From positions 1 through 49,194 of the forward strand of contig CAYVKW010000003.1 in NCBI GenBank assembly GCA_964452285.1: a stretch of 49,194 nt of DNA, read 5' to 3'. Origin of the DNA: an uncultured Pseudomonadales bacterium (lineage in GTDB: Bacteria; Patescibacteriota; Microgenomatia; UBA1400; PJMF01). Made by a program: the position numbers and the translations under genes. Of the stretch, positions 1 to 37,479 are shown in pieces. The notes beneath the pieces were generated by a model that saw nothing but the letters and a program-made list of their open reading frames with translations, was not told the DNA's origin and made no database searches. Numbering within the stretch: the stretch's first letter is position 1; each line of letters opens with the position of its first letter.

Positions 1-3000
1 AACTTGCTGTCTTTGCCGCTGTCGTCCCATCGCTCCAAGCATAATTAGCTTCAGGTGTAACAGTTGCTGTATATGAGCCAGCATCTGTTGCCGAAGCTGT
101 TCCGCCCACAGTATAGCCAGTTCCAGCAGCCAAACCCACTTGCGCCGATCCATTGTAAGTGCGATTAGTTGCCGTTGGAACTGAGATAGAGGCTCTGGTA
201 ATCGTTAATTTACCAGTTGCATTTGTCACTGTGTAGTTAGCAGTCACATCAGTTGTTCCCGATTTAATTATCGCTGTTGCAATTGTATTGTCTACCTCTC
301 CCACCTCGGTAATGGTCGAACCAGCTGTCATTGTACAAGTTACTGTTTGACCAGACACCAGATTGTTACCTGTACAAGCCGAATTAGTCAAAGCTGAACC
401 ATTGTAAGCTCTTGAAGAACTGCCTGCTGTCACAGTAATCGCTCTCTTGTTGACTGTCAGCGTTCCATTCACTTTAGTGATTGCATAGTTAGCCGATACA
501 TCATTGGCAGAAGCATCTTTAATCACTACCGTTGACAAGGTATTTGCTGCTGATCCAGCCGTTGTTTGTGATCCCGTATTAGTACAAGTTGCACTGTGTC
601 CCGAGACCAAAGTGCCCGTGGTTAAACTACAGGCAGACGCCAAACTCAAAGCTGAGCCATCATAGGTTTTGCTCGTTGAAGCGGCAGTATATGTCACCGG
701 TTTTTGAGCCACACTACATGACAATGTCTTTTCCGTCTCTCCATCAGAGAAAGCATAATTATCATTTGCCACTACCGTCACTGTTTGTGTTCCTGCCACT
801 GTTCGGCTGTTATTGGTATAGGTTACATTGGCTCCACCAGCTGCCAAAGTTTGCGCACTACCATTGTAAGTTAATGTATTACATGAACCCGTCGTGGCTG
901 TAGCTGCTCTTGTCACAGTTAAACTTCCCGTTACATTGACTACTGTATAATTACTACTCACATCATTACTGCTCCCATCTTTTATTACTGATGTACTTAT
1001 TGTATTTACCACGCTCCCCACATTTGTTATCGTACTTCCAGCTGTCATTGTACATGTTACACTATGACCAGACACCAAAGTCGCTCCTGTACAGCTGCCA
1101 TTTGTTAATGCATTTCCATTATATGCTCTGCTCGCACTTCCAGCTGTGACGGTCACCGATTTTTTAGCAATGGAACAAGAAAGAGTTTTAGAAGTAGCTG
1201 TGTCTGAGAAACGATAACCAGAAGTAGCATTTACCGTCACTGTTTGGGACCCAGCATTTGTCATCGTATTATTAGAATAAGTTACCCCAGTACCTCCAGA
1301 AGCTAGAGTTTGAGCACTGCCATTATAAGTTAAAGAAGCGCACGAACCAGTTGTAGCCACCTTGTAGCCAGTTACCGTATACGTAGCAGTCCTATTATTG
1401 TAATTAGTCGTATCCGTTGGCGTAAAAGTCACAGTAATAGTTGAAGTACCATTAGAAACACCTGTTATAGTCACAGTCTTTGCAGTATTAGCTGTAATCG
1501 AGGAATAGGAAGCGGGGGACACAGTTGCTACAGCAGTAGTGCCAGAGACATTTTCAAATCCTCCCGCTACATTAGCCGTTTCTGTAAAGGTAATCGTCGA
1601 TCCAGCATTTACTGTTCCCGAAGTCGCAGATAAAGTCAAAGTTGGAGTGGCTTTGGCAATACTACAAGTGAAAGTTTTAGTTGACGTAGCATTATCACTC
1701 CAACGATAGCCACTCGCCAAAGTTGCAGTAATGGTATACGAACCAGCATTAGTTTGTGAATAACCAGACAGAGTATAACCAGTGCCGGAAGTAACTGAGG
1801 TCAATTGTTGTGCCGAACCAGTATAAGTCCGAGCTACACATAAGGAATTAGTTGGAATAGTCGCGCTCGAAGCAATTGTTGCTGTATACGTAGCAGTCCT
1901 ATTGTTGTAATTAGTCGTATCCGTTGGTGTAAAAGTCACAGTGATAGTTGAAGCTCCTCCAGCTACACCAGTTACAGTTACAGTTTGAGCTGTATTAGCT
2001 GCAATCGAGGAATAGGAAGCGGGGGACACAGTTGCTACAGCAGTAGTGCCAGAGACATTGCTAAAGTTTCCAGCAATATTGGCCGTTTCCGTAAAAGTCA
2101 TTGTTTTACCTGCTACCACTGTCCCCGAAGTCGCAGACAAAGTTAAAGTCGGGGTGGCTTTTGAGATTGTATGAGCAGTACAAGCCGAAGTCGCGCTATT
2201 GTAATTGCTGGTAGCCGCCACTGTTGCTTTCACTGAATATGAGCCCGCATTAGTTGGGGCTGAAGATAAAGTTGTACCACAAGCAGTCCCTGAATAATAA
2301 GTATAGGTAATAGCTCCACCAGAGGCTGGAGAAACTGTAGCTGTATTCGCTGCAATCGCCGAACCAGTATATGTTTCTGATCTCGCTGTTAAAGAAACAG
2401 TTGGGTTAGCTTTATTAATCGTCAAAGTGTAATCCTTATAAACACTCACATAATTAGTTGTTGCTGCACTCGTCACTCTCACTGTCACCGTTGTTCCAGC
2501 CGCCAATCCAGCCAAAGAAGAAATTGTTACCGTTGTCCCACTGATCGTTGTCGCTGCTGACGTCGAAGTTGTTTCTGCCACCGACAATGTCCCCCCACTT
2601 GTATTAGCAGACACAGTAAAAGTAGTACTCGCTGTTCCGTATGTCGTAGTTCCAGAACTTGCCGACAAAGTTAAAGTCGGGGTAGCTTGGGCAATCGTAA
2701 AACTTGCCGATTTAGTATTGCCGGCCACATCTTTCACCCAAGCATAATAAGTTCCAGCATTACGAACTGTTGAATCAGTTACTGTCGTACTCGCCGTCGT
2801 CGCCGTAATAGTAGTCCAGCCACTCGTCGGCGCAGTTGAACTATTCGTCACTTGCCAACCATTAATACCAGAATTAGCATCCTGAAAAGTAATTGATGAT
2901 TTAGCACCATAAGTTACATTTGTTGCACTTACTGTCGGTAGCGTCGTATCCACTTGTACCGTACAGGTATTAGAATATCCAACGTTTCCCGCATAATCAA

Positions 3001-3853
3001 TCACTTTATAACGGTAAGTGTAACAACCCTGCGCCATTGGATTTTGAGTTAACGAAGTTACATAAGGATTACCTACATTAGCATAAGAACTCATACCGCT
3101 GCAAGCAAAAGCTGTTGAAGAAGACACTTGAAAATAAGAATTGCTCGTATCTACTCCAGATCCAGTCTCCACCAAATTAGCAAAATTTGCTGTTACTGTA
3201 AAACTGCTATCAGACACAGATGCCGAACAAGCAATTGTCATACCCGTCGGAGCAGTTTCATCACAACCATTAACAGTCAAATCATATGGTGCACTGGTTG
3301 TTCCAGTTCCATTATCAAAATCAGACAGACAAACTGCAGTTTGATCTAAATACAAAGCAGGCAGGCTAGCATAATCAGTAGTGGTTGTAATTGCTGTAGA
3401 AGCCAAAGCCCCACTAGTATTAATTGCGTAAGCTTGACCACTTGTAGCACTCGGAGTTCTCGTCCACACATAAGAAGCACCAGTTGGCAAATAATTTCCA
3501 GTCGCGCTGCCATTTAATGCCGTTCTGTATGTTTCTTTTACACTCGCCCATTCTGAGTAAGAAACTGTAGAAATTTTTGGTGAAGAACAAGACGTTCCAC
3601 TTTCATTTCCTTGCACTCCAGAACTCCAAGTGGTATTCAAAACATAAGTTGCATAATCACCCAGTAAACTCAAAAAACCCGTCGAGCTATTATTTAAAGA
3701 GGCAGACAAATCCGATGCGCACCAGACATTACTATCAGCATCATAAGTTATAGCTTTCACTTCTTGAGTTAAATTCGCGCCCAAAAACACCAACCCTGAC
3801 GTCAAGATCACAACACCTAGCTTTACCAGTATTTTCAACCAAATTTGTTTCAT
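1..3853 (-). CDS. Giant secreted repeat-rich surface protein (adhesin-like); N-terminus complete, C-terminus cut by the window edge
   Basis: Absent from the supplied ORF track because it has no stop inside the window. My reverse-complement translation from the ATG at 3853-3851 gives MKQIWLKILVKLGVVILTSGLVFLGANLTQEVKA, a signal peptide or anchor. The frame stays open to position 1. Frame check: codons 61-59 down to 4-2 read ...VTPEANYAWSDGTTAAKTAS in the same frame as the ATG, giving 1284 codons plus 1 nt. The distal half consists of ~85-aa modules of the form K(K/R)x(I/V)TVTAGSxSRAYNGSALT..LVSG(H/Q)xVTCT..AG....VG......I...S..DV(S/T)xNYxVxxxxGxLT(I/V)xR. These resemble MBG/YDG-type repeats of giant adhesins. 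The protein is Thr/Ala/Ser/Gly-rich. Confidence 0.8.
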   Translation of the reverse strand, partial: MKQIWLKILVKLGVVILTSGLVFLGANLTQEVKAITYDADSNVWCASDLSASLNNSSTGFLSLLGDYATYVLNTTWSSGVQGNESGTSCSSPKISTVSYSEWASVKETYRTALNGSATGNYLPTGASYVWTRTPSATSGQAYAINTSGALASTAITTTTDYASLPALYLDQTAVCLSDFDNGTGTTSAPYDLTVNGCDETAPTGMTIACSASVSDSSFTVTANFANLVETGSGVDTSNSYFQVSSSTAFACSGMSSYANVGNPYVTSLTQNPMAQGCYTYRYKVIDYAGNVGYSNTCTVQVDTTLPTVSATNVTYGAKSSITFQDANSGINGWQVTNSSTAPTSGWTTITATTASTTVTDSTVRNAGTYYAWVKDVAGNTKSASFTIAQATPTLTLSASSGTTTYGTASTTFTVSANTSGGTLSVAETTSTSAATTISGTTVTISSLAGLAAGTTVTVRVTSAATTNYVSVYKDYTLTINKANPTVSLTARSETYTGSAIAANTATVSPASGGAITYTYYSGTACGTTLSSAPTNAGSYSVKATVAATSNYNSATSACTAHTISKATPTLTLSATSGTVVAGKTMTFTETANIAGNFSNVSGTTAVATVSPASYSSIAANTAQTVTVTGVAGGASTITVTFTPTDTTNYNNRTATYTATIASSATIPTNSLCVARTYTGSAQQLTSVTSGTGYTLSGYSQTNAGSYTITATLASGYRWSDNATSTKTFTCSIAKATPTLTLSATSGTVNAGSTITFTETANVAGGFENVSGTTAVATVSPASYSSITANTAKTVTITGVSNGTSTITVTFTPTDTTNYNNRTATYTVTGYKVATTGSCASLTYNGSAQTLASGGTGVTYSNNTMTNAGSQTVTVNATSGYRFSDTATSKTLSCSIAKKSVTVTAGSASRAYNGNALTNGSCTGATLVSGHSVTCTMTAGSTITNVGSVVNTISTSVIKDGSSNDVSSNYTVVNVTGSLTVTRAATATTGSCNTLTYNGSAQTLAAGGANVTYTNNSRTVAGTQTVTVVANDNYAFSDGETEKTLSCSVAQKPVTYTAASTSKTYDGSALSLASACSLTTGTLVSGHSATCTNTGSQTTAGSAANTLSTVVIKDASANDVSANYAITKVNGTLTVNKRAITVTAGSSSRAYNGSALTNSACTGNNLVSGQTVTCTMTAGSTITEVGEVDNTIATAIIKSGTTDVTANYTVTNATGKLTITRASISVPTATNRTYNGSAQVGLAAGTGYTVGGTASATDAGSYTATVTPEANYAWSDGTTAAKTAS
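1377..2170 (-). repeat. Intragenic tandem duplication: two near-identical ~290-bp segments spaced 507 bp apart inside the adhesin gene
   Basis: Copy 1 starts at 1377 (gtatacgtagcagtcctattattgtaattagtcgtatccgttggcgtaaaagtcacagt...). Copy 2 starts at 1884 (gtatacgtagcagtcctattgttgtaattagtcgtatccgttggtgtaaaagtcacagt...). Both continue through ...aatcgaggaataggaagcgggggacacagttgctacagcagtagtgccagagacatt... with scattered substitutions. A weaker third echo of the module end lies near 2650-2700. Confidence 0.85.
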
Positions 3854-19984: not shown

Positions 19985-20947
19985 TTAATTCTTTTCCCCT
20001 GGCATCTTTTTCTCAGTTTCGTAGATCAGTTCTCCATTTTTTACTATTAAAACTACTTTGCCAAGCAAATCCGTTCTTAATACTGTTGAATTTATCGCTT
20101 GGAGTCTTTCTAATGTCTCTGCGCCTGGATGCCCAAAATTATTGTCCTGTCCACAACTAATCAAAGAAATTTCGGGTTGAAGAATAGTTAAAAAATCAAG
20201 CGTAGATGACAATTTTGAGCCATGATGCGGCACTTTTAGACCATCAATTTTCTTTAGCAGACCACTACCAATCATTGCTAATTCGGTGTTCTTAGCAATG
20301 TCACCTGCTAATAGAAAGTTTTTGTCTTCAATTTGCATTTTTATCACGATAGAACCGTTATTATAATCAATATTTTTATGTTCAATTTTTTTCAACATAT
20401 CCGATAAGTCTTCAAAAGTATTTTTATAGGAAAAAATATTTCCAGGCAGAACTTGTTGACTATGCCACAATACTTGCCAACAGATAGATTTTGTCTCGCA
20501 ATTTGTTTGCGCCATCACCGGCGACGAAATTTTTAAACCTTCATTTTTCTGTTTCAGCTGCAATAAATTAAAAAAGTCTTCAAATTCCGCACTTTCTTTT
20601 CCTAAATTATCTAAAACAATTTCTTTCACTTGATAACGCTTTAAAACCTCAATTAACCCTCCAAAATGATCCAAGTCTGTATGAGTCAAAATTATTTTCT
20701 CTATTACTTTGTCATTATAAGGCATCTCTTCCTCTAGACAGTGTAGAACTAACGCATCTGGCCCTCCATCAATCAGCATTTGTTTATCATCTTGAGTAAC
20801 TAGTATTGCATCTCCTTGGCCTACGTCACACATCACTAGTCTGGGAAAATTTCTTTCTTCTGCTTTCCTCTGGCCATCCACTAATTCTAGAATTAAAGCA
20901 AAAAGCCAGAGCAATCCGAGCGCTTTCGTCTTCCATTTATTCCACAT
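19985..20947 (-). CDS. Membrane-anchored MBL-fold hydrolase matching the C-terminal beta-lactamase-like domain of ComEC, encoded as a separate ORF
   Basis: N-terminal TM (ALGLLWLFALILELV). MBL motifs VMCDVGQGDAILV, ILTHTDLDHFGG, FLLAGD and LKVPHHGS. Its ATG overlaps the end of the upstream comEC ORF by 11 nt (ATGTGGAATAA). Confidence 0.85.
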   Translation of the reverse strand: MWNKWKTKALGLLWLFALILELVDGQRKAEERNFPRLVMCDVGQGDAILVTQDDKQMLIDGGPDALVLHCLEEEMPYNDKVIEKIILTHTDLDHFGGLIEVLKRYQVKEIVLDNLGKESAEFEDFFNLLQLKQKNEGLKISSPVMAQTNCETKSICWQVLWHSQQVLPGNIFSYKNTFEDLSDMLKKIEHKNIDYNNGSIVIKMQIEDKNFLLAGDIAKNTELAMIGSGLLKKIDGLKVPHHGSKLSSTLDFLTILQPEISLISCGQDNNFGHPGAETLERLQAINSTVLRTDLLGKVVLIVKNGELIYETEKKMPGEKN

Positions 20948-22316
20948 ATACTCGCTTTTTCCTCCTTTTTAAATACAAATAAAACACGAATAATAACCAA
21001 AAGAAATAATAAACATAGTAGTAATAAACTGGTATTTTATCTTCCAATTCCCAAATATTTCCAAACCTAGCTAAATAAAGATTCAAGCCTTTGTAAAATA
21101 AATTTAAACTTAATTCTAGATAAAATTTTAAAGGATTAATCAATATTATTTTAAATAAAACAGACAAATTTGCTAAAGGAGAAAAAAGCACAAAACAAAT
21201 CCCTAGAGTAATAATTAACACTAAAATACCCGAAAAAAGCACTGTTGCTAGAATGCTCCACCAAGCATACTTTTGAAAAACCAATAGCGTAATCGGTAAA
21301 GTCAATACTTGAGCTGCCAAAGATACCCCAATTAAACCAGCAATTGTCTGAAAAAATTTTAAAATCGTCTTTTTAGACCATTTAAGCGGTTTGCCAGATA
21401 TTGATTCACCTCTATATTGGGATAAAATATCCATCATATTCGTCATTTCTCCTGCAAATAGCAAAATTCCCAATGTAGCTACAAAGCTCAAGAGAAAGCC
21501 CACATTAAATACATTTAAGATCATATAGTTGAACATTAAAATAAAAGATAAAAACAAAATCAAAACTCCTTTCGTTTGTTTATAAAAAAAATAGCGACCA
21601 ATAAAGGAAAAAGTCATCATCAAACCAGCTCGCACTATAGACAATGGACTGCCAACTAACAAAATATAAATTAGCATTCCAGGCAAAAATAAAAACTTTG
21701 CTTTTTTCTTACCCAAGCTCTTATTTAAAATCGTTGGCACAATTGTCATTACTACTCCCAGATGAAAACCAGAAACAGCTACCATATGAGACAGACCAGC
21801 TCGAGAGAACTCATCTTTTAAGGCAGGACTAAACTGGAAAATTCTCGTTCCTAAAGTTAAAGCAGTTAATAATTGCAGGTTTTCCCCGGAAAAGTAAATC
21901 TGTAATGAACCCAATAAGTTTTTACGTCCTTTAAGCAAAAAATCTTCTAAATTGGCGAAACTTTGACCAAGGTAAAAAGAAACCAAACTTCTCTTATTTG
22001 TATTTTGATAAAAATGCGATACTTCAAGGTTATCTTGCCACTTCAGTCTTTTATCAGTCACAGAGTTCACCCTGCCAACTATCGTATATTCTTCGCCTAT
22101 TTTTAGTGTTTCGCATTTTTGAATAACGAAGTCAAAACCTTCTTTAGTCTGGAAACGACAATTGGGGGGATAATAATGAACAAAAATTCCAATTTCTAGC
22201 ACTTGTCCATTGCATAGTGCTAAGTTTCGTTTTTTTGAAAAAAAATTAAAAATAGAACCAAAAATCATTATTGCAATCAATATCAAAGTATATTTTGCCG
22301 ATCGATTTTTTCTCAT
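20937..22316 (-). CDS. comEC: ComEC/Rec2 DNA-uptake channel (OB/DUF4131-like N-terminal region plus competence domain), lacking the MBL domain
   Basis: Competence-domain motif AGLSHMVAVSGFHLGVV and many TM helices. 459 aa. Confidence 0.85.
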   Translation of the reverse strand: MRKNRSAKYTLILIAIMIFGSIFNFFSKKRNLALCNGQVLEIGIFVHYYPPNCRFQTKEGFDFVIQKCETLKIGEEYTIVGRVNSVTDKRLKWQDNLEVSHFYQNTNKRSLVSFYLGQSFANLEDFLLKGRKNLLGSLQIYFSGENLQLLTALTLGTRIFQFSPALKDEFSRAGLSHMVAVSGFHLGVVMTIVPTILNKSLGKKKAKFLFLPGMLIYILLVGSPLSIVRAGLMMTFSFIGRYFFYKQTKGVLILFLSFILMFNYMILNVFNVGFLLSFVATLGILLFAGEMTNMMDILSQYRGESISGKPLKWSKKTILKFFQTIAGLIGVSLAAQVLTLPITLLVFQKYAWWSILATVLFSGILVLIITLGICFVLFSPLANLSVLFKIILINPLKFYLELSLNLFYKGLNLYLARFGNIWELEDKIPVYYYYVYYFFWLLFVFYLYLKRRKKRVYVE

Positions 22317-22351: not shown

Positions 22352-23032
22352 CTATAATGCAATTAAATTCTTAATTTCGTTAAAAATTTTTTCACTAATA
22401 ATTTTGTCATTTAATAGCTGATCTATTTTCGTATAAGGTCTACCATCTATAATAGCCTGTCCTTTGACCTCTCCTATACCAGACAATTGGGTTAATTCTT
22501 TTAAAGAAGCTTTATTAATTGAAATCAAGGTTGTAACAGTACTTTGACCAGATCTGGTATCATCGGACTCGAACACTATCTCTTCATTTAGAACCTCCTC
22601 TTTATAAGGCACGTAGTATTTATTACCGTCTATCACCAACCCAGCTAAATTCATATTTTTTTGCAACCACCAGATATCAACCATTTGAGTTTCAAATCCT
22701 CCCGCCACTTTAATCAAATCAGCTAGTCTTTTACCCTCCGGCAATACATAGACTCCCGGATTTTTGACTGCTCCACCGATATCTAGAATTACACTTTTTA
22801 TTTCCTCCACATCATCATTTATAGCTACAGCTGCTTCAGGTTTAATGTAAGAGACCGTCTGATCTGTCAAAATCGGCTCTTTTTCTTTTTTGCTAATCAT
22901 TAACCACAAAAGTATATATCCGCCTGAAATTAGTAGACATAAACCGACCGCCAACCATAACCAGTTTCGCCACTTTTTAATTTGCCATTTTTGTCCCAAG
23001 ATATTAATCATTTTCGTCTTTCTTTCGTTCAA
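22352..23032 (-). CDS. comEA: ComEA-type DNA receptor (SLBB domain plus tandem helix-hairpin-helix)
   Basis: TM anchor. SLBB-like IGGAVKNPGVYVLPEGKRLADLIKVAGG. HhH region INKASLKELTQLSGIGEVKGQAIIDGRPY. An alternative start exists at 23011 (MINILGQ...). Confidence 0.85.
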   Translation of the reverse strand: MNERKTKMINILGQKWQIKKWRNWLWLAVGLCLLISGGYILLWLMISKKEKEPILTDQTVSYIKPEAAVAINDDVEEIKSVILDIGGAVKNPGVYVLPEGKRLADLIKVAGGFETQMVDIWWLQKNMNLAGLVIDGNKYYVPYKEEVLNEEIVFESDDTRSGQSTVTTLISINKASLKELTQLSGIGEVKGQAIIDGRPYTKIDQLLNDKIISEKIFNEIKNLIAL

Positions 23033-24028
23033 TTATTCACACTATTATGACAAAAAAATGATAATTTTTTTGTTTCGGTCATATTTTTGGTTCATAATTT
23101 TAACTCATTTTTACTTTTTTTTATTTCCGCATTATTCCAATATTATTCCCGCAAACTCAAGAAAAATAATTAACGCAAAAAATTTAAAAAGATTATAAAT
23201 ATATCAAAAGTTACTTTTTCATTGATAAATTTTTTGCCAATTTTAAAAACCGAAATTTACTCAAGAAAACTTTTTACCAGATTGACTAAAACCATTGAAT
23301 TTGGTTCAGCCAGATATAAACCAGATTAAAATCAGTTATCTTCATCTTTCAAAGATTAATATGGAGCAGATTCTTTTCAGTTTCGGTTATCTTTCATTAC
23401 CAAAACTTAATCAGTTATAATTTCGTCTTTATCTCAATTAATTTAGATTAATTTGATATTACCTATCAATCATAATAAATTCAGCATTTTTTGCTTTAGC
23501 AAATGTTAGCTGACAGTGATAAAACCAGACTAACAAATATTTTTTTAGTTTTTCGCTCATTTTAAACAATTTCGGTTTTTTATGCTCTTGTTAGCTCTTT
23601 TTTTCTTCATTATTTTTTTCTCTTTTTCCGAATCTTTTATTTTAATTATTTCTCTATTTTACTTTTTTTAATCACGCTGAGTATTCTTTTTCAATTTGTT
23701 TTACCTTTTTTATTTTCTCACCTCGCTTTATTTACTTACACCCAAACTTTTCCCCTCCTACTATCATCTTCCTTTAGCCTTCTCTCTCAAAATTTAAACC
23801 ATTAAAAACTAAGTTCTTTCATAAAAAACACCATTATTAATTGTTCAATTTTTCAGCCAATTAATCTTTAGCTATTTCATTAACGCCTACTGAGCTTGCT
23901 TAGCCTTTCCAATTACTTGCTCTCTCAAATCTATTACATAGTTTAATGCTTTTTCTGCAACAATTTTTTTACGCATTTTTTACAAAGAAAACAATTGTTT
24001 TACTTTTTTCTTTACTTGACCTAAATTC

Positions 24029-24070
24029 ATGCAAAAATTGCGATAATAGTTATTATCGCAATTTTTGCAT
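24029..24070. repeat. Perfect 42-bp palindrome (20-bp arms, 2-nt centre): candidate operator or divergent promoter element
   Basis: atgcaaaaattgcgataata-gt-tattatcgcaatttttgcat. I checked base by base that the right arm is the exact reverse complement of the left. Each arm carries TGCGATAAT, an extended -10-like sequence. TTGACC lies at 24016-24021. Confidence 0.9.
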
Positions 24071-24264
24071 ATAAAAAATCAATTTCCGCACCCTTCATTT
24101 CTTTCTCTTTTATCACTTCACTATCACCAAAACTGCTTTTATAATGCAATAAATTCATCTCTTCGTTTTTCCTCTTCTTTTTTCTTTTCCCATTTTCCCA
24201 TTCTTTTATTTAAAAATGCAGCTCTTATGCCTCTTACAAACAGCTTGAAATTGCCCATCAAAGC

Positions 24265-24273
24265 TGCTAAAAT
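24265..24273 (+). promoter_or_regulatory. Extended -10 promoter (TGCTAAAAT), 9 nt upstream of the ATG at 24283
   Basis: Read directly: ctgctaaaat-aatcttatt-ATG. Confidence 0.45.
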
Positions 24274-24282
24274 AATCTTATT

Positions 24283-28551: not shown

Positions 28552-30120
28552 TTATTTCCGCAAACATTGCAAGAATTCTTTATTATTTTTTGTTCTTTTC
28601 ATTTGCTCAATTAAAGTAGTTGTTCTCTCATCTTTATCAAAAGTATCCAACATTCTTTGTAAGGTCAGCACTGCTTGATAAGTCACCGGATCAATCAATA
28701 AATCATCCCTTCTCGTTCCAGACTTTTGCACTTCAATCGCCGGATAGATTCTTCTCTCCGCCAATCTTCTGTCCAAATGAATTTCTTGATTGCCAGTACC
28801 TTTAAATTCTTCATAAACCAAATCGTCCATTCTCGAACCAGTATCTACTAGAGCTGTCCCAATAATCGTCAGCGATCCTCCAATTTCAAAATTGCGTGCC
28901 GCCCCAAAAAATCTTTTTGGCGGGAATAAAGCCGCTGGATCAAATCCTCCAGACAAAGTTCTCCCAGAAGTTGGAATAGATAAATTGTAGGCTCGAGCCA
29001 ATCTTGTAATTGAGTCCAGCAAAATTACCACATCTGCTCCTCCTTCCACCAAACGCTTTGCCCTTTCCAAGGCCAATTCTGCCACCTTACATTGTACATC
29101 CGCCGCTTCATCAAAATTACTTGCTGCCACCTCTCCCTTACCTTGAGTAATTTTTTCCACATGACGCCGCATATCAGTCACTTCTTCTGGTCTTTCACCA
29201 ATTAAAACAGCCATTAAATGAATATCTGGATAATTTGCCGCTACTCCAGTGCTGATTTCCTTAAGAAATGTCGTCTTCCCAGCTTTTGGCGGCGACACAA
29301 TCAAACTTCTTTGCCCTCTCCCTATCGGAGCAATTAAGTCCACAATTCTTGTCGACAATGGTTCTTTACCCGTTTCCAATTTGATTTGCTCATCAGGATA
29401 TACTGGAGTTAAACTCTTAAATTTTATTCTTTCTTGAGTCATAAATTCCGTCGCCTCCACCCCGTTCACCTTCTCAATAGTCGCCAAAGCCCAATATCTA
29501 TCGCTCTCTTTTCCTTCCCGCGCCACACCCTCAATGATATCTCCTTCACGCAATTTATACTTTCGAATCAAATTTGCAGGCACAAATACATCGTTTTCGT
29601 CTTCTGCATAATGAATTCTTGCAATTCCCATATTTTCTCGCAAAAGCTCCAAAATTCCTCTCATCGGTCGTGTCTTTTTTTCTATAAGAGGTTTACTGTG
29701 CTCAAAATTTCTCTGTATTATCGACGGTCGATTAAACCTAGATATCGGTGCATTTACTACTCCACGAGTAATTTTTGTCACCACTGGCGGTGCAGAAATT
29801 TGACTTTGCACTAATTGAGGCGCGACTTTAGGTTCAGTCCTTGCTTTTAACTTATCTATTAGAGAATCATCTGGACGAGTCGTCTCTTTTGCTTGTTGAC
29901 CTTCTATGTCTTTCTCGCTCAGTTTCGTTTTTTCCGACACTTCAACAGGTTTTATTTCTATCTGGATATCGCTTTTATCAGTTTCTTTCTCTTTTAGAAT
30001 CTCAAGCTGAGTCACCGATTTAGGCTTTGGTTCATCAATCGCCTTTTCCTTTTCTGTGCTCTGCAGTATTTCTTCTTTTTGTACTTCTTCCACTTTTTCT
30101 TCCTGAACTTGATCAGTCAT
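28552..30120 (-). CDS. rho: Transcription termination factor Rho with a ~150-aa K/E-rich N-terminal extension
   Basis: Walker A LIVSPPKAGKTTFLKEI, Walker B VVILLDSITRLARAYN, and the RNA-binding OB region. SD-like GAAGGGA upstream. Confidence 0.94.
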   Translation of the reverse strand: MTDQVQEEKVEEVQKEEILQSTEKEKAIDEPKPKSVTQLEILKEKETDKSDIQIEIKPVEVSEKTKLSEKDIEGQQAKETTRPDDSLIDKLKARTEPKVAPQLVQSQISAPPVVTKITRGVVNAPISRFNRPSIIQRNFEHSKPLIEKKTRPMRGILELLRENMGIARIHYAEDENDVFVPANLIRKYKLREGDIIEGVAREGKESDRYWALATIEKVNGVEATEFMTQERIKFKSLTPVYPDEQIKLETGKEPLSTRIVDLIAPIGRGQRSLIVSPPKAGKTTFLKEISTGVAANYPDIHLMAVLIGERPEEVTDMRRHVEKITQGKGEVAASNFDEAADVQCKVAELALERAKRLVEGGADVVILLDSITRLARAYNLSIPTSGRTLSGGFDPAALFPPKRFFGAARNFEIGGSLTIIGTALVDTGSRMDDLVYEEFKGTGNQEIHLDRRLAERRIYPAIEVQKSGTRRDDLLIDPVTYQAVLTLQRMLDTFDKDERTTTLIEQMKRTKNNKEFLQCLRK

Positions 30121-31144: not shown

Positions 31145-31344
31145 TTAATTATAGGCCTTAGGCAATTTATTTTTAGTTCCATTTTTGGTTTTGCTTTTCA
31201 AATTTGGTAAAAGTGAGTCTTTTAAGAGCGATTTGTGCCATTAAGCGAGGGTTTACAAATCAAAAAAAAGATTTATGATATGGACATCGTTGAACGTAGT
31301 TCCAATTTTTTGCTTGAACTCGCTCTCGAATAAGAAAAAGCATT

Positions 31345-31392
31345 ATTATACGTGGTCTGTCCAGCGATAATAATGCTTTTTTCATCAATTCC
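31345..31392 (+). terminator. Strong orphan (bidirectional-type) intrinsic terminator hairpin in a divergent intergenic region
   Basis: aaaaagcattattat (31345-31359), a 17-nt loop, ataataatgcttttt (31377-31391), then one more T. The 15-bp arms are perfectly complementary. The A-run before and T-run after give terminator geometry on both strands. No annotated gene reads into it from either side. Confidence 0.65.
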
Positions 31393-31740: not shown

Positions 31741-31770
31741 TTGACATTCATCATTTATTTATAGTAAAAT
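31741..31770 (+). promoter_or_regulatory. Sigma-70-type promoter of the 31783-37457 module
   Basis: TTGACA at 31741-31746, an 18-nt spacer, then TAAAAT at 31765-31770, 12 nt before the ATG at 31783. Confidence 0.5.
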
Positions 31771-31782
31771 GACTATAAATTT

Positions 31783-34700
31783 ATGGCAAAAAGACTCTCC
31801 GAGCCAACGGTTTCGGATTTATTATTGAACAAAAAAAACGCCCCCTCTTGTCGTGCCAAAAAAGATCACTTTCTCCTCAATCAGATTCTCAACTCTGCCG
31901 CTAAAAAAGAATCTTTGCCTCTCACCACTCATCAATCAACTCGTTCTTCTGTCTTTTCTCCTCGTTCTTTAGGTGATTTATCGCACTTTTTTTCTTCTCA
32001 CAAAAAAAATCCTTCCACATCTTCGAATCCGGCCTTTTCTCCCCGTTCGCTCGGCAATTTAATCGACGTTTTAGATCCTCACCGTTCCTCCGTCCCATCT
32101 CCAAAACAATCAACTTTCCACCCTCGTTCTCTTGGAGATCTTTCTCACTTTACTTCTTCAAATCAAGAGCCTCTTTCTGATTCTTGTCAAAAGCAATCGC
32201 CTTCAGACTTTCATCAACAACTTTTCCAGTCTCATCCAAACTCAGCCTTAACAGATTCATCTTTCCCTTCGTCTTCATCTTCTAACGCTTCAAGCTCTAG
32301 CCAGCAATTGCCATTATTTAAAAATCTCTCCTTTATTGTTTTAGGCGTTTTCGGACTTGGTGCCATTATTTTTCTTGGCCAACAATTAATTGACCAAGCT
32401 CAATTCAACTTTGCTGCTCAAGATAGTCTAGATACAACAAATTCCAATTCTCCTCTCTCACCTCGTCATATTCTTACTTTTCAAGGTCGTTTAAGCGATC
32501 TTGACCAAGCCTCAGTTACTCAAACCCTTTCTATGAATTTCTCTTTTTATAATACTAGCGGCGGCAATACTCCACCACCAATCGGCGGCAATGAACTCTG
32601 GCAAAGTTCTACTTGTTCCATCACCCCCAATGAGCAAGGTGTTTTTTCAGTTAATCTTGGCGCGGGCAACGGTGATGGCAGTGACAATCAAGATTGCGGT
32701 CGCGATTTAGGTAATATTTTTGCCGAAAATAGCAGTGTTTGGCTTCAAATTACTGTAGAAGACGAAGTTCTTTTCCCCCGTCAATTAATTAAAAGCGTTC
32801 CCTACGCCCTTAATAGCGCCACCCTTCAAGGCTTTAGCGCCAGCCAAAGTGCTACTGCCAATACTGTCCCAGTAGTAGACAACTTCGGCAATCTCAATTT
32901 TAATACTAATAGTACTAATTTCACCAATTTTGGCTCACTCGGTTTGATTTCGCAAGCCGGCGACATTTTGCTCGCTCCTGGGTCTGGACACGTTTATATC
33001 GGCAATCAAAACCACGCTGCTTCTCTCTCTGTTAATGGCGACGCCACTATCTCCGGCTCTCTCGTCTTGAAAAACGATGATTATCAAGCACAACTAACTC
33101 TCGAAGACAATAATCAATTGGTTTTCAAAACCAAAGCTGGTCAGGGACTTTGGCAAAATCAACTTGTTTTTAGTCAACAAAACTCTAGCGGGACTGCTCA
33201 AACTCTCTCTCTCAACCAAGGTAGTTTCAATTTCAATCTCACCGATGGCCCCAGCGTCACCAATATGACTGTTTCCGAATATGGCACTGACAATCCCGGA
33301 CTTTCTAGAATTTCTGCTCCCAAAAAACCGCTCGTTATTAATGTCTTATCTCAAGAAGAAGGAAATTTAAACGCCGCTACTTATAAGTACGCTTATTCAT
33401 TTATTACCGCCAACGGCAAAGAGGGTCCATTAAGCACTTCTTCTTCCTTTACTAGTCAGCTCAGTCAAAAGCAATTTTTAATCACTGACATCGACATTTA
33501 TCCCCAGTCAAATATCGTCGCTCGGCGCATTTATCGTACCAAAGCCAATCAAGACACTTTTTATTTAATCCACACTCTCAATGATAATATCAGCACTAGT
33601 TTTGTTGACAACATTGACGATGACGATTTATATCTAGCCGCTTCTAATCAAAATAATTCCACTGGTACTTATCAATACAAAGTTTCTTTTATTCGCCAAA
33701 CCAGCGAAACCAATCCTTCTCTCGGTAGTAGCAATATTGTTTTATCAGGTGATAATCGTCGTCTTTTACTTGAACACATTCCTTTATCTTCAGCCAAAGA
33801 TGTTATGGCTCGCAAAATTTATCGCACCTTGGCGGGCGGACAAGACTTTTATTTGCTCGCCACTCTTTCAGATAATTCTACCACTTCTTACACTGACACT
33901 ACTCCAGACAGCGCTTTAGTACAAAATGACCCCATGCCTTTAAGTGGCGGCATTCTTGTCAACAACAACTTAGCTCTTCAGTTCAATCAAGATGGTTCCA
34001 TTATTAGTAACAATGATTTTGTTTCCAATGGCCGTTTAGAAACTTCTCATGGCGATTATCAAGGTTTACAGCTGCCTACCTCCCTTGGAACACCTTCTCC
34101 GGCACTTGGTCAAAAAATTGGCGACCTAGTCTACGATAGTCTCAATCAACTCCTTTACGTTTTTAATGGCTCAAAGTTTATTACTCTCAACCAAAATGCT
34201 TCATCTTCTAATACAGAAGATAACTATTGTCACAACAGTGTTTGTCGCTTTACCCTCGATCCAGAATATCCAAGCGCCGTTATTACCGGAGAAGGAGAGA
34301 ATAATCTTGGCACTATTTCCAGCGGTTACGACATTGTTAATAATCAATATCGCTTCAATTATTACCAATGGTATTCTAGCCAAACTACTAAACTAGACAA
34401 TTTATCTACCAACATTAATCTTACCCTTCCTTACAATTTTTCATCTTGGCAGGAACAAGCTATTACTCTTGACTTTCTTACCAGCTCAGCTTCTATTACT
34501 GACAATGCTCTTGATTTTTATATTTCCAAAAATGGTAGCGATAATATAATTAGCAAAATCGATCAAATTGGCAATCAAGTTAATCAGTGGTCAAGCGCCG
34601 CTCTCGGCACTCAGCCTCTGATTATTTCCGCTTCCGATCTTAGTAGTCTCAATGTTCAAGCTGGAGACACTCTCAATTTGCGCCTTGTCGCCAAAAGCAA

Positions 34701-35271
34701 AAATTCCTCTCAAGTTAAATTCGGTCAAATTAATCTTAATTACTATAGTCAATCCGCGTCGTCATCCTCTTCTTCTCTTATTTGGCAAAAAATTTCCGGC
34801 CTTATTTCCCCCACCTCTAATAATGATATCGTTCTTGGAGGAGATTCCACCGCTAGTGCCAAAATTGGTTTCTTCAATCTTAACGGCACTGGCATTCCCA
34901 CTCTTTATTTGAAAGGCAATCTTTTCCTTGATAGTCTTTTCAAACGCAACTTCTTTGACTTAGCTCGTGGTAACGATCTTAGTATTCGCACTCTCGATGA
35001 AAACAACGTTGCCACTGAAAGATTTACTCTTTCTTCAGAGGGTAAAGTTGGAATTGGCGAAAGCACTCCTGAAGCAACCCTTGATGTTGGCGGCGACATT
35101 AGTCTTGATGGCGGCTTGCATTTTCAAGCTATTTCTCAAACAGAAGCAGGCATTTGTGATGAACAAAACTCAGGAAAAATCTTTTATAATAGCGCAGACT
35201 GGCAATTCTATGTTTGCCAAGCAACTAATCAAAATGCCGACGTTTTTGCTTGGATCAAATTACAACAATAA
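31783..35271 (+). CDS. 1162-aa single-pass membrane protein: cytoplasmic motif-bearing tail plus a long fibre-like, beta-rich extracellular region
   Basis: No signal peptide. Three FxPRSLG(D/N)L motifs at aa 58-122. Ser-rich linker. TM helix FIVLGVFGLGAIIFLG near aa 190. N/S/T/G-rich exterior with two ~95-aa internal repeats. The C-terminal segment GKVGIGESTPEATLDVGGDISLDGG is reminiscent of phage tail-fibre or tip proteins. Confidence 0.7.
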   Translation: MAKRLSEPTVSDLLLNKKNAPSCRAKKDHFLLNQILNSAAKKESLPLTTHQSTRSSVFSPRSLGDLSHFFSSHKKNPSTSSNPAFSPRSLGNLIDVLDPHRSSVPSPKQSTFHPRSLGDLSHFTSSNQEPLSDSCQKQSPSDFHQQLFQSHPNSALTDSSFPSSSSSNASSSSQQLPLFKNLSFIVLGVFGLGAIIFLGQQLIDQAQFNFAAQDSLDTTNSNSPLSPRHILTFQGRLSDLDQASVTQTLSMNFSFYNTSGGNTPPPIGGNELWQSSTCSITPNEQGVFSVNLGAGNGDGSDNQDCGRDLGNIFAENSSVWLQITVEDEVLFPRQLIKSVPYALNSATLQGFSASQSATANTVPVVDNFGNLNFNTNSTNFTNFGSLGLISQAGDILLAPGSGHVYIGNQNHAASLSVNGDATISGSLVLKNDDYQAQLTLEDNNQLVFKTKAGQGLWQNQLVFSQQNSSGTAQTLSLNQGSFNFNLTDGPSVTNMTVSEYGTDNPGLSRISAPKKPLVINVLSQEEGNLNAATYKYAYSFITANGKEGPLSTSSSFTSQLSQKQFLITDIDIYPQSNIVARRIYRTKANQDTFYLIHTLNDNISTSFVDNIDDDDLYLAASNQNNSTGTYQYKVSFIRQTSETNPSLGSSNIVLSGDNRRLLLEHIPLSSAKDVMARKIYRTLAGGQDFYLLATLSDNSTTSYTDTTPDSALVQNDPMPLSGGILVNNNLALQFNQDGSIISNNDFVSNGRLETSHGDYQGLQLPTSLGTPSPALGQKIGDLVYDSLNQLLYVFNGSKFITLNQNASSSNTEDNYCHNSVCRFTLDPEYPSAVITGEGENNLGTISSGYDIVNNQYRFNYYQWYSSQTTKLDNLSTNINLTLPYNFSSWQEQAITLDFLTSSASITDNALDFYISKNGSDNIISKIDQIGNQVNQWSSAALGTQPLIISASDLSSLNVQAGDTLNLRLVAKSKNSSQVKFGQINLNYYSQSASSSSSSLIWQKISGLISPTSNNDIVLGGDSTASAKIGFFNLNGTGIPTLYLKGNLFLDSLFKRNFFDLARGNDLSIRTLDENNVATERFTLSSEGKVGIGESTPEATLDVGGDISLDGGLHFQAISQTEAGICDEQNSGKIFYNSADWQFYVCQATNQNADVFAWIKLQQ

Positions 35272-35273
35272 TT

Positions 35274-37457
35274 ATGACCACAAATCAACTTTTAGAAATT
35301 CGCACTGGCAGAGACAATAAAAAAGACGCCTCCGCCATGATGGAATTTTTTTCCACTCTTCCTTCTTTACACGACAATTTATTTTGGCAACTTTTAGGTC
35401 AGAGAGAGAGTTTGAGTTTTGAAATTGTTCTAGAAAATCAAAACATTTCTTTTTTTCTCAGCGCCCCAGAACGCCTTATTGGCTATCTCAAAAGTTTAAT
35501 TGGAGCTAATTATCCAGAAGCAACAATTAAACCAGCTATTGATGGCGATTTTTTGTCATACTTCGACAAAAAATCGCCCCAATCTTATTTCTCCGACCAT
35601 CTTTCCCTCTTAGCTGCGCCGCTCAAATTAGCCAATAATCAATGTTTTCCCCTCAAAGACTATCGCGAATTTAGCGATGCCGACGCCCTCTCTCCTCTTT
35701 TATCTCGACTTTCCAAAGGCAAAATCAATGAAAGAGCAGTTATTCAGTTTCTCGTTTCCGCCAGTAGTGAATTTTGGAAAAATAGCTGCCAAAACATTGG
35801 CTCTCAAGCAAATTCTTCAGTTTCTAGCGCTGTCAGTCTCCAAAAAACTTTAGCCGACAGCAAAGTTAGAGAAAAAAGTTTATTGGTCAATCTTAATTTA
35901 GCTGTTGTTTCTGACAGCGCCGAAGAAGCTCACCTTTTCCTTCATAGTTTAATAGACACTTTAAATACCACCAAAAAAGAAGATAGCAATCAATTAAAAA
36001 AACGCTTCCAACTTTCTCCTTCATTTATCATCGACCGTATGAAAAAAAGAGCGCAACAATCATCGACCGCTTTTCATTTGACTGTTTATGAGCTCGCCAC
36101 TCTTTATCATTTTCCTTATGAAAAGCTAGCCACTATTCCCAATCTTGCTTGGGGTAAAAATCTTCTTGGTGAACCACCGGCCAATTTGCCCATTGTTAAA
36201 AAAGATTCTCCGCCAGAAGTCAAAAAAAATATTAATGTTTTTGCCGAGACTCTCTTTAAAAATGAAATCCAACGCTATGGCATCGAAAAAGTCGATCGCC
36301 GACGTCATATGTATGTCATCGGAAAAACCGGCACTGGTAAATCCACCCTCTTGGCCAATATGGCTATTAATGACCTTCGCAATAATGAGGGACTTTGTTT
36401 TATTGACCCGCACGGTGACGCCATTGACATTCTATTAGACTACATCCCCGCCAATCGTATCAATGATGTTATTTATTTCAATCCTGCTGACGGTGAACGC
36501 ACTGTTAAAATCAATCTTTTCGAAGGTCGCAACATTGAGCATCGTGAATTAATCGCTTCTGGAATAGTCTCCATTTTCCACAAGCTTTACGAATATTCAT
36601 GGGGACCGCGTCTTGAACATTTCTTGCGCAACGCTCTCCTCACCTTACTTCAGATGGAAAATGCTAAACTATCAGATATCATTGAACTTTTTACTGATAA
36701 AAACTTTCGCAAAAAAGTTCTTTCTCAACTATCAGATCCAGTTCTGCGCAATTTTTGGGAAGGAGAGTTTGAACCTCTTCAAGATCGTCTTAAAAATGAA
36801 GCCGTTGCTCCAATTCTCAATAAAGTTGGTCAATTTGTTTCTTCTCCTCTTGTTCGCAATGTTGTTAATGCCGACAGAAGCTCTTTTTCTATCGAGCAGA
36901 TCATGGACGAAGGCAAAATTTTACTCGTCAATCTTTCTCAAGGCGCCCTCGGCGAAGACAACGCCACTCTTTTAGGAGCCATGCTTATTACCAAAATTCA
37001 ACTTGCCGCCATGGGCCGCGTCAATATTCCCGAAGAGGAACGCCGCGATTTTTATCTTTATGTCGACGAATTCCAAAATTTTGCCACTAGTTCATTTAAC
37101 AAAATCCTTTCCGAAGCTCGCAAATATCGTCTCGATTTAATTCTTGCCAATCAGTATATTGCTCAAATTCCAGAAGACGTTCAAAAAGCTATCTTTGGCA
37201 ATTGCGGTAGCATGGTTAGCTTTGTTATGGGTAGCGAAGACGCTCAAGTTTTTTCCAAAGAATATGGCGATAAATATTCTTTTGACGACCTTGTCTCTCT
37301 CAATCGCCACCAAATTATTAATCGTCTTTCTATTGAAAACATTCTTTCTTCCCCTTTTCCCGCCTACACTCTGCCTTTAGCTAGAAGTAGCAACCAAAAT
37401 CGAGACAAGGTTATTCGCGTTAGTCGAGAACGTTATGCCACCAAAAGAGACCTGTAA
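35274..37457 (+). CDS. Soluble ASCE P-loop ATPase of the HerA/FtsK/VirD4 (TraD-like coupling protein) type with a novel ~330-aa N-terminal region
   Basis: Walker A RRHMYVIGKTGTGKSTLLANMAI followed by CFIDPHGD. Walker B FYLYVDEFQNFAT. Then EARKYRLDLILANQYIAQIPEDVQKAIFGNCGSMVSF. No TM helix. Start trimmed from 35250 to the ATG at 35274, 2 nt after the upstream TAA at 35269-35271. Confidence 0.7.
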   Translation: MTTNQLLEIRTGRDNKKDASAMMEFFSTLPSLHDNLFWQLLGQRESLSFEIVLENQNISFFLSAPERLIGYLKSLIGANYPEATIKPAIDGDFLSYFDKKSPQSYFSDHLSLLAAPLKLANNQCFPLKDYREFSDADALSPLLSRLSKGKINERAVIQFLVSASSEFWKNSCQNIGSQANSSVSSAVSLQKTLADSKVREKSLLVNLNLAVVSDSAEEAHLFLHSLIDTLNTTKKEDSNQLKKRFQLSPSFIIDRMKKRAQQSSTAFHLTVYELATLYHFPYEKLATIPNLAWGKNLLGEPPANLPIVKKDSPPEVKKNINVFAETLFKNEIQRYGIEKVDRRRHMYVIGKTGTGKSTLLANMAINDLRNNEGLCFIDPHGDAIDILLDYIPANRINDVIYFNPADGERTVKINLFEGRNIEHRELIASGIVSIFHKLYEYSWGPRLEHFLRNALLTLLQMENAKLSDIIELFTDKNFRKKVLSQLSDPVLRNFWEGEFEPLQDRLKNEAVAPILNKVGQFVSSPLVRNVVNADRSSFSIEQIMDEGKILLVNLSQGALGEDNATLLGAMLITKIQLAAMGRVNIPEEERRDFYLYVDEFQNFATSSFNKILSEARKYRLDLILANQYIAQIPEDVQKAIFGNCGSMVSFVMGSEDAQVFSKEYGDKYSFDDLVSLNRHQIINRLSIENILSSPFPAYTLPLARSSNQNRDKVIRVSRERYATKRDL

Positions 37458-37458
37458 G

Positions 37459-37479
37459 TTGAAGTATTTATAACTTCAA
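37459..37479. terminator. Weak shared hairpin between the convergent ATPase and radA genes
   Basis: ttgaagt (37459-37465), loop atttata, acttcaa (37473-37479). The loop contains the radA stop codon. AT-rich, with no clear U-tract. Confidence 0.25.

Follow-up and report, generated by a model that had tools for sequence, protein, structure and literature searches.

A fibre-like surface protein gene beside a coupling-type ATPase gene in a Microgenomatia chromosome: probably two separate genes made neighbours in one lineage

Two genes that follow one another on the same strand, with only 2 nt between them, raise the question of whether their products form one machine. The pair in question lies at positions 31783–37457 of contig CAYVKW010000003.1 (assembly GCA_964452285.1; Patescibacteriota, Microgenomatia), and the whole stretch of 49,194 nt that was analysed is referred to as the window. 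Gene 1 encodes a 1162-amino-acid (aa) membrane-anchored, fibre-like surface protein, a probable adhesin, and gene 2 encodes a 727-aa ATPase resembling the type IV coupling proteins (T4CPs) of type IV secretion systems (T4SSs). A preliminary description of this stretch had proposed a self-contained two-component system made of just these two proteins. We arrived at a different reading, to which we assign a probability of roughly 0.7, namely that the locus consists of two separate genes made neighbours in one lineage and is not a new two-part machine. What the preliminary description said of the gene layout was borne out: the two open reading frames (ORFs) are 2 nt apart and end convergent with radA, 10 nt away (Table 1). 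Related loci are denoted below by L numbers and proteins by P numbers.

Descent and promoters of the gene pair

Synteny was judged in the best 80 GTDB species loci, 69 of which have enough upstream sequence for this purpose; gene calls in related loci were greedy ORF calls made in this analysis. A gene 1 homolog, or its membrane-proximal anchor domain, was found within 10 kb of the ATPase gene in 6 of the 69 loci (L003–L007 and L015), which together with the window and L001 gives eight carriers in total. In the other 63 informative loci the ATPase is syntenic without gene 1, and the order obg, LysM-M23, rho, sortase, ATPase, radA recurs in gene 1-less genomes (L002, L008–L030 and others); in other Microgenomatia the sortase and ATPase genes are separated by 450–1000 bp with no gene inside. 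The eight carriers form one clade nested among non-carriers in a neighbour-joining tree of 58 ATPases, indicating a single insertion of gene 1. The idea of a self-contained system does not agree with a pair that is syntenic in one narrow clade only. In the same genomes, identity to the window is 67–83% for the ATPase versus 35–55% for gene 1, and a distant member of the gene 1 superfamily sits away from the ATPase (L085). ORFs of about 1100 aa upstream of the ATPase in L023, L026 and L028 were considered as analogous fibres and discarded, since they are polytopic membrane proteins with about 10 transmembrane (TM) segments, show no relation to gene 1 and lie in a different context.

The promoter-like site that the preliminary description had placed ahead of gene 1 holds up (Table 1) and is conserved upstream of gene 1 orthologs: a TTGACA...TAGTAAnAT block is present in L001, L003 and L015, and the −10 box also in L004 and L005. 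Since this box ends 12 nt ahead of the ATG, the gene 1 leader is expected to be very short. At the other end of gene 1, the stop codon TAA (35269–35271) is followed by 'tt' and then by the ATPase ATG, and no Shine-Dalgarno-like motif was found at this junction in the window sequence. The shared promoter and translational coupling suggested earlier stand as far as the 2-nt junction of the window and L001, its closest relative, is concerned, but this arrangement is not conserved. The ATPase ATG is preceded, at a distance of 6–21 nt, by an extended −10 box (TGnTATAAT or TATACT) both where gene 1 is missing and in six of the eight carriers, whose gene 1-ATPase spacer measures 12–156 nt; the 2-nt junction without a recognisable ATPase promoter occurs only in the window and L001. 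Because the ATPase promoter is kept in six of eight carriers, the shared transcript and possible translational coupling appear to be a recent feature of a sub-lineage. As a separate observation, made at window positions 35234–35273 and by the ATPase start in L003–L009, L015, L017 and L019, genes seem to be transcribed from extended −10 promoters (TGnTATAAT) placed 6–21 nt before the ATG, with no Shine-Dalgarno motif; −10 boxes so near the ATG without a Shine-Dalgarno motif imply that leaderless or near-leaderless mRNAs are the rule in this group.

In the course of events that we favour, gene 1 would have been inserted once, together with its own promoter, between the sortase/small-RNA region and the ATPase gene, and collapse of the spacer to 2 nt in the window and its closest relative would then have given rise to an incidental operon. 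On this reading the ATPase would not require gene 1.

According to the machine originally proposed, the ATPase docks on the tail motifs of the fibre and powers its export or extension, or moves DNA or protein at its base; we regard this as unlikely. Co-directional adjacency in all eight carriers, as well as in L084 and L099, speaks for such a machine, but the ATPase is syntenic without gene 1 in the 63 loci mentioned above and superfamily members carry the same anchor domain away from the ATPase. Similarly, the 2-nt junction of the window and L001 would suit it, whereas six of eight carriers have a separate ATPase promoter; the tail has conserved xLG(D/S)L motifs, yet it is the least conserved part of gene 1 (22% identity); and the ATPase is without a membrane anchor of its own, but so are the ATPases of relatives that lack gene 1, which are equally TM-less. 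Another reading, which we hold to be improbable in like measure, is that an adhesin captured before the ATPase gene became a working pair with it in a probably gut-associated Microgenomatia lineage, the RSLGDL repeats recruiting the ATPase ring to the host-contact membrane. If this were true, a minimal 'adhesin plus coupling ATPase' device would link adhesion to the ATP-driven movement of DNA or protein to another cell or compartment's side of the membrane, other T4SS parts not being nearby. The closest metagenome-assembled genomes to the window come partly from goat gut, and the homolog records are named Microgenomates, Pacebacteria and Woesebacteria.

Several points weigh against regarding the two genes as separate. 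The gene 1 tail does bear conserved short motifs, and close gene 1 orthologs lie directly upstream of the ATPase wherever the downstream flank is visible, showing that the arrangement is stable once acquired; further orthologs are on the same contig as an ATPase homolog. The ATPase of the window and L001 does depend on gene 1 transcription, since no ATPase promoter is recognisable at their 2-nt junction, and a functional link may have evolved in this sub-lineage. Moreover, the Microgenomatia ATPase must be tethered by something because it has no TM helix, unlike its Saccharibacteria and Berkelbacteria relatives. As for the function expected of the ATPase by itself, an obligatory T4SS role is disfavoured by the non-essentiality of the T4CP homologue in S. 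epibionticum, where other T4SS genes are essential according to a Patescibacteria survey (PMC12102498).

The coupling-type ATPase

The longest gene 2 ORF opens at a TTG (35250), and the alignments of homologs open at the ATG at 35274 (MTTNQLLEIRTGRD). In agreement with the preliminary description, its product is a soluble P-loop ATPase of VirD4/HerA type: the motifs GKTGTGKST, IDPHGD, VDEFQNF and ANQYIAQ are all present, with nearly every motif residue invariant among 86 homologs, and no hydrophobic segment was found (maximum Kyte-Doolittle score over 19 residues, 1.24), so that the N-terminal TM anchor expected of a T4CP is absent. The ATPase domain matches TrwB_AAD_bind (E 5e-10, 39.2 bits versus a cut-off of 20.5) over profile positions 11–325 of 387, and TraG-D_C and DUF87 in Pfam also scored above their gathering thresholds; the NCBIfam matches, to TraD, a VirD4-like family and CedD, were all partial and far under the cut-offs. 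Whether the single protein or the 86-sequence profile was used, TrwB was the best sequence match in the PDB; HerA and DotL followed weakly, and VirB4 was undetected.

In the AlphaFold2 (AF2) model (mean predicted local distance difference test score, pLDDT, 84; about 90 in the N-domain), residues 421–546 are helical and the sequence alignment to TrwB passes through them, indicating that the all-alpha insertion characteristic of T4CPs is present. For the full-length model Foldseek placed TrwK/VirB4 first (E 8e-15, TM-score 0.38, about 850 columns aligned), and for the C-terminal half TrwB (E 1e-12, target-normalised TM-score 0.6–0.65) followed by DotL, Cag-beta and HerA. Sequence matches to AAA_10, CagE_TrbE_VirB or a VirB4 chain were lacking in Pfam and the PDB, and a profile of the N-domain built from 35 diverse sequences matched nothing significant in PDB sequences or the local Pfam copy; equivalence to the VirB4 N-domain is therefore a fold-level hint only. 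The likeness to HerA and to PADLOC mad8 is of a lesser kind, as HerA models align over about 50–80 aa far below their cut-offs; neither a full HerA profile match nor an adjoining nuclease or effector gene was found, and a reading as a defence system was rejected for want of partner genes and in view of the vertical conservation. By homology, gene 2 would form a hexameric or ring-shaped ATPase.

The N-terminal half, about 330 aa by the earlier estimate and unplaceable at that time, can now be placed as DUF8128 (PF26449), although this domain is itself uncharacterised. The precomputed Pfam annotation assigns it to gene 2 (P0001) and to nearly all of the 120 matches listed; the local Pfam copy gave no match of the N-domain to the PF26449 model. 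A tblastn search of plasmids yielded a full-length collinear homolog (query residues 47–716, 22% identity, pairwise E 7e-34), WP_213380696.1, a 913-aa 'DUF87 domain-containing protein' encoded on the 65-kb B. subtilis plasmid NZ_OX419568.1. It is likewise free of TM segments, and its N-terminus aligned with DUF8128 in hhalign with a probability of 99.2% (E 1.9e-19, 257 columns), indicating that the N-half of gene 2 is a recognised uncharacterised domain that accompanies such ATPases in Firmicutes plasmids. The gene for WP_213380696.1 lies directly upstream of those for a replication-relaxation protein, TcpC, TcpE and an AAA_10 VirB4-like ATPase, and sits in the coupling-protein position of a monoderm conjugation-type module.

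The family is widespread. A word-indexed search returned 6516 homologs at E<=1e-5, the full-length ones being 57–60% identical and named Microgenomates, Parcubacteria, Patescibacteria and similar, and two peptide patterns alone confirmed 571 relatives in GTDB species genomes. In the survey cited above, 5713 VirD4-type T4CP homologues were counted in 2918 of 3035 Patescibacteria genomes (96%), about two per genome; VirB4 was rarer (2417 of 3035 genomes), just 148 of the T4CP homologues were near virB4, and exaptation to other functions was raised (Quinonero-Coronel et al. 2025, PMC12102498). An essential Saccharibacteria T4SS without a recognisable coupling protein has been described by Wang et al. 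2023 (PMC10633639). Judging by shared Pfam families and NCBI names, gene 2 would belong to the published 'orphan' T4CP class, near-universal in Patescibacteria and usually away from virB4 (PMC12102498), which again does not agree with the two genes being a system of their own.

Three arrangements were seen in more distant loci. In Saccharibacteria/Berkelbacteria-type loci, a conserved cluster comprises tgt, an acidic protein of about 110 aa, ATPase A (about 830 aa), a soluble protein of about 180 aa and ATPase B (950–1000 aa) (L064 5040–11314, L074 762–6873, L075 6378–12394, L078 7132–12961, L080 6424–12664); ATPases A and B are tandem paralogs with one N-terminal TM helix each, the gene between them is conserved, and no VirB4 adjoins them. 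In Parcubacteria, the DUF8128 N-domain is a separate gene of 430–450 aa immediately upstream of an ATPase gene of 610–660 aa (L065 5788–13093, L068 277–7474, L082 7328–13117), the pair of L065 coming after secD, secF and a sigma70-r4/HARE-HTH protein. In a sister group whose ATPase is about 45% identical, a DUF11 surface-repeat protein is convergent with the ATPase, with rho and LysM-M23 just beyond (L042 12230–12985, L044 12473–13291, L052 3871–4599, L061 12389–13093).

Such neighbours could mean that the ATPase serves general envelope protein export or surface assembly instead of a T4SS, gene 1 being one of many clients. A sortase divergently adjoins the ATPase in about 24 loci in Microgenomatia, DUF11 proteins lie beside it in the four sister-group loci, secD-secF are upstream of it in L065 and tgt adjoins it in the Saccharibacteria-type clusters; T4CP homologues are also commoner than VirB4 in the survey counts given above. 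However, the neighbours include rho, obg, radA and tgt as well, and synteny in reduced genomes may be inherited gene order. We know of no T4CP-family ATPase that drives substrates of Sec or of sortases, an LPXTG sorting signal is missing from gene 1, and the closest homolog with a functional context, that of the Bacillus plasmid, lies in a conjugation module. On balance, this role is rather improbable.

Under the reading with two separate genes, gene 2 would be the Microgenomatia ortholog of an ATPase that is near-universal in Patescibacteria and passed on vertically. From homology it may act at the membrane as an ATP-driven, ring-shaped translocase or as a substrate receptor. Its partners would be encoded at other loci, the most likely one being a chromosomal monoderm-type T4SS, and DUF8128 could be a docking module that takes the place of the TM anchor.

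The fibre-like protein, the spacer RNA and the window

Gene 1 proved to be a membrane-anchored, N-in, fibre-like giant as proposed in the preliminary description, with one TM helix followed by a beta-rich region of about 960 aa. Its sole hydrophobic segment is at residues 181–199 with none closer to the N-terminus, in line with the absence of a signal peptide; all 26 of 26 homologs have a single hydrophobic segment as well, 60–300 aa from the N-terminus. This topology was deduced from hydropathy, from the basic tail and from the AF2 model, in which (mean pLDDT 62) residues 1–182 are disordered, 180–205 form a helix and the remainder is beta, with confident beta domains at 226–338, 488–720 and 840–990.

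No Pfam or NCBIfam family matched gene 1. Its two repeats match PHROG 511 'internal virion protein' (E 3e-18) and, weakly, PDB 8jov, a virion-associated phage protein; searched as a whole against BFVD with Foldseek, the model gave many phage tail fibre, minor tail and host-specificity proteins (E 1e-12 to 1e-6). Against the PDB, Foldseek gave the carbohydrate-binding modules (CBMs) CBM61, CBM6 and CBM30, Cry-toxin domains II/III and crAss001 tail proteins; as no query coordinates were returned, the CBM and Cry-toxin matches are presumed to fall on residues 840–990. The C-terminus (...FYVCQATNQNADVFAWIKLQQ) carries no LPXTG-type signal, so that gene 1 should not be a substrate of the adjoining sortase. 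Taken together, gene 1 would be a fast-evolving fibre consisting of tail, TM helix, base domain, stalk, two virion-like repeats, jelly roll and tip, whose distal domains most likely bind host or environmental/substrate glycans as an adhesin; essential adhesins have been reported for Saccharibacteria (PMC10633639), and the proposed role is comparable to theirs.

Conservation among 21 gene 1 orthologs is highest in the anchor domain (65% identity) and lowest in the tail (22%), which keeps only the short motifs xLG(D/S)(L/I) and LLNxYL. A phmmer search with residues 195–400 found 1269 cluster representatives at E<=1e-3 and 360 at E<=1e-10. Among the matches listed, the proteins are mostly 1000–4800 aa and the domain usually lies 100–500 aa from the N-terminus; those with names are Patescibacteria hypothetical proteins, at least one of them annotated 'site-specific integrase'. 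Gene 1 has the FQGRL...PRQ...YALNS..LQG domain after its hydrophobic segment, as is characteristic of this giant anchored superfamily. Since the domain is at the same distance from the N-terminus in the superfamily, the topology that had been called unusual is the hallmark of a large family. The N-terminal region before the membrane, presumably cytoplasmic, contains a phage-integrase SAM-like domain in many giant members (P0144–P0146, P0158; L002 1–901, a 4322-aa protein); in L085 (5506–10716) this domain has a gene of its own, 164 aa long, immediately ahead of that for the giant.

Table 1. Positions in the window of gene 1, gene 2 and the elements around them
Feature	Position	Strand	Basis
Gene 1, 1162 aa, type-II (N-in/C-out) membrane-anchored fibre-like surface protein	31783..35271	+	ORF, hydropathy, AF2, Foldseek
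Gene 1 promoter-like site, TTGACA-18-TAAAAT	31741..31770	+	11/12 match, best in region
Gene 1 aa 1–180, disordered low-complexity cytoplasmic tail	31783..32322	+	pLDDT < 35
FxPRSLG(D/N)L motifs x3 in the tail, aa 58, 85, 112	31954–31980, 32035–32061, 32116–32142	+	Motif search
Gene 1 aa 181–205, single TM helix	32323..32397	+	Kyte-Doolittle peak 2.18; AF2 helix 180–205
Gene 1 aa 206–340, membrane-proximal 'anchor' beta domain, best-conserved part	32398..32802	+	65% mean identity among orthologs
Gene 1 aa 488–720, two phage-virion-like beta repeats (YxYxxSF...ARxIYRT)	33244..33942	+	pLDDT about 90; PHROG 511
Gene 1 aa 840–990, jelly-roll, lectin/CBM-like domain	34300..34752	+	pLDDT 85–93; Foldseek PDB
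Gene 1 aa 1041–1162, C-terminal tip (GKIFYN...FYVCQA...W motif)	34903..35268	+	Motif kept in orthologs
Gene 2, 727-aa TM-less DUF8128 + T4CP (TrwB/VirD4)-like P-loop ATPase	35274..37457	+	ORF, Pfam, Foldseek
Gene 2 aa 1–310, DUF8128 alpha/beta N-domain	35274..36203	+	PF26449, precomputed annotation; pLDDT about 90
Gene 2 aa 339–667, ATPase domain with inserted all-alpha region	36288..37274	+	Pfam, Foldseek
Gene 2 Walker A	36321–36347	+	GKTGTGKST
Gene 2 Walker B (VDEFQNF)	37062–37082	+	Motif
Promoter-like block ahead of the 53-nt hairpin	31252–31279	+	Conserved; variable 5' hairpin between
53-nt hairpin in the sortase-gene 1 spacer	31332..31384	+	Conservation, covariance
7-bp hairpin TTGAAGT-N7-ACTTCAA	37459..37479	.	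Read from sequence; spans convergent ATPase/radA junction

The spacer between the sortase gene and gene 1 contains an extremely conserved 53-nt hairpin (AAAAAGCAUUAUUAU-A-CGUGG-UCUGU-CCAGCG-AUAAUAAUGCUUUUUU). Its per-column identity was 91% over 35 loci, where the flanking ATPases are about 57% identical, and 5 of its 21 base pairs show compensatory changes. The window copy of the RNA folds with z = −4.4. A promoter-like block and a variable 5' hairpin precede the 53-nt hairpin, which predicts an RNA of about 100 nt; the hairpin is probably its 3' terminator, the transcript running from about 31286 to 31388. The element is syntenic with the sortase/ATPase spacer in 35 or more loci. In some gene 1 carriers it is inverted, which favours an independent gene over a leader. 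A covariance model detected strong copies in 22 of 86 sources; seven further sources have weak copies in the corresponding place, and the Saccharibacteria and Parcubacteria loci have none; L034 has two tandem copies. A pattern-only metagenome scan gave 22 loci with the hairpin, which lies between sortase or rho and the ATPase where context exists. The hairpin belongs to the conserved locus and not to the two-gene pair.

The hairpin is not in Rfam 15, a gathering-threshold Rfam scan of the window returned three tRNAs only, and E-value scans of the window, L002 and L029 spacers, made for a known RNA, gave noise only. Other identities were rejected: a dif or terminus site, because the cumulative GC skew is monotonic across the window, and a conserved small ORF in the sortase-ATPase gap matching the gene 1 tail, because none is plausible there in L002 and what is conserved is the DNA/RNA sequence. 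No complementary target site for the hairpin loop was found in the window. Proteins of about 785 aa beside the hairpin in L088, L094, L095 and L098 were tried as divergent ATPases and turned out to be unrelated Cys-rich secreted proteins. In L002 (9372–9435) a second conserved hairpin block (GTGGAAGCTCGGCTGCCTGCCCAACTGCCGAACCTCCAC) is located on the sortase side of the first, about 170 nt upstream of it, and is also found in the gene 1-less loci L010, L012, L013, L016–L018, L021, L024, L025, L029, L030 and L036; no counterpart could be recognised in the gene 1 carriers, the window included.

Judged by its annotation, the 49-kb window comes from an ordinary part of a Patescibacteria chromosome, with ribosomal protein L10, a MurD-like ligase, NDK, ArgRS, comEA, a split comEC, obg, LysM-M23, rho, sortase and radA among its genes. 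Consistent with the preliminary description, which had found no T4SS parts nearby, the Pfam annotation of ORFs longer than about 150 aa revealed no VirB4/AAA_10, relaxase, pilin or secretin in the window, and neither relaxase nor VirB4 was found beside the ATPase in annotated related loci. This bears on whether the pair is the remnant of a mobile element (an integrative and conjugative element, a prophage tail module or a defence island) and not a set of core genes. A T4CP-type ATPase, phage-like fibre domains, the PADLOC mad8 and HerA similarity and a PHROG 5156 match (E 1.5e-59) are what such a remnant might contain, but no integrase, relaxase, VirB4, capsid, terminase, NurA or Sir2 was found in the 49 kb, base composition and GC skew are continuous with the flanks, the same chromosomal position recurs in many genera, and the ATPase tree is deep and vertical-looking. 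We consider a mobile origin of this kind very improbable.

At the downstream end, the ATPase stop (37455–37457) and the radA stop (37468–37470, minus strand) face each other with 10 nt between them. The 7-bp hairpin at this place was not detected by the terminator scan and may be a candidate bidirectional terminator. The competence genes mentioned in the preliminary description together with radA are indeed in the same window, with comEC split into two ORFs on the minus strand overlapping by 11 nt (19985–22316; Competence domain 20937–22316, Lactamase_B domain 19985–20947) and comEA directly upstream (22352–23032). Between comEA and a tetratricopeptide-repeat membrane protein, a 1.25-kb AT-rich stretch (23033–24282, GC about 0.30) has no ORF longer than about 100 aa and no Rfam match. 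Rho (28552–30120, minus strand) has a charged, low-complexity N-terminal extension of about 190 aa, and the sortase, LysM-M23 and a solute-binding protein have 60–120 aa ahead of their TM segment, indicating that long N-terminal regions are common in this genome. The other giant protein of the window (2–3853, minus strand) showed no similarity to gene 1.

Significance and comparison with known systems

The gene 2 ATPase family is among the most widespread uncharacterised protein families of Patescibacteria. Relative to the available part of the published survey, four points are new: the Microgenomatia form is anchor-less; its N-half is DUF8128; this domain is common to a TM-less ATPase in the coupling position of a Bacillus conjugation-type plasmid; and the ATPase gene is normally served by a short-leader promoter of its own and keeps a stable context of sortase and radA. 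These points offer a handle on the role of the orphan coupling ATPases, and the Bacillus plasmid homolog is experimentally tractable. The case of gene 1 illustrates how what looks like an operon can have arisen by a recent insertion in a single lineage, and gene 1 itself joins a very large family of giant anchored surface proteins, candidate factors of host attachment. The 53-nt hairpin may be a new Microgenomatia small RNA.

Compared with T4CPs (TrwB of R388, VirD4, TraD/TraG, DotL and Cag-beta), the C-terminal 390 aa of gene 2 have the same fold, Walker A and B motifs and all-alpha insertion, whereas a soluble 310-aa DUF8128 stands where T4CPs have their N-terminal TM domain; relaxase and mating-pair genes are missing from the neighbourhood, and gene 2 is a chromosomal, vertically inherited core gene. 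The Patescibacteria orphan T4CPs (PMC12102498) are of the same phylum, bear T4CP-type names and are usually far from virB4, but the available part of that work does not describe the DUF8128 N-domain, the TM-less Microgenomatia form, the sortase/radA synteny or the gene 1 insertion. WP_213380696.1 resembles gene 2 in being collinear over residues 47–716, N-domain included, and in having no hydrophobic segment, and differs from it in its acidic C-terminal extension, the 22% identity and the conjugation-type module around it. VirB4 (TrwK of R388) shares the soluble layout of two domains, N- and C-terminal, and is the best full-length Foldseek match; however, with a TM-score of 0.38 and no sequence match, equivalence of the N-domains stays at the level of the fold.

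For gene 1, phage tail fibres and virion proteins (PHROG 511, crAss001 tail, PDB 8jov) and CBMs match the extracellular domains by profile and fold, but gene 1 is chromosomal, its product has a cytoplasmic tail and an internal TM helix that anchors it in a cell membrane, and there are no phage genes in the window. The giant N-anchored Patescibacteria proteins have the same membrane-proximal domain at the same distance from the N-terminus; many of them are 2000–4800 aa long and have an integrase SAM-like domain in place of the RSLGDL tail, and they are encoded away from the ATPase.

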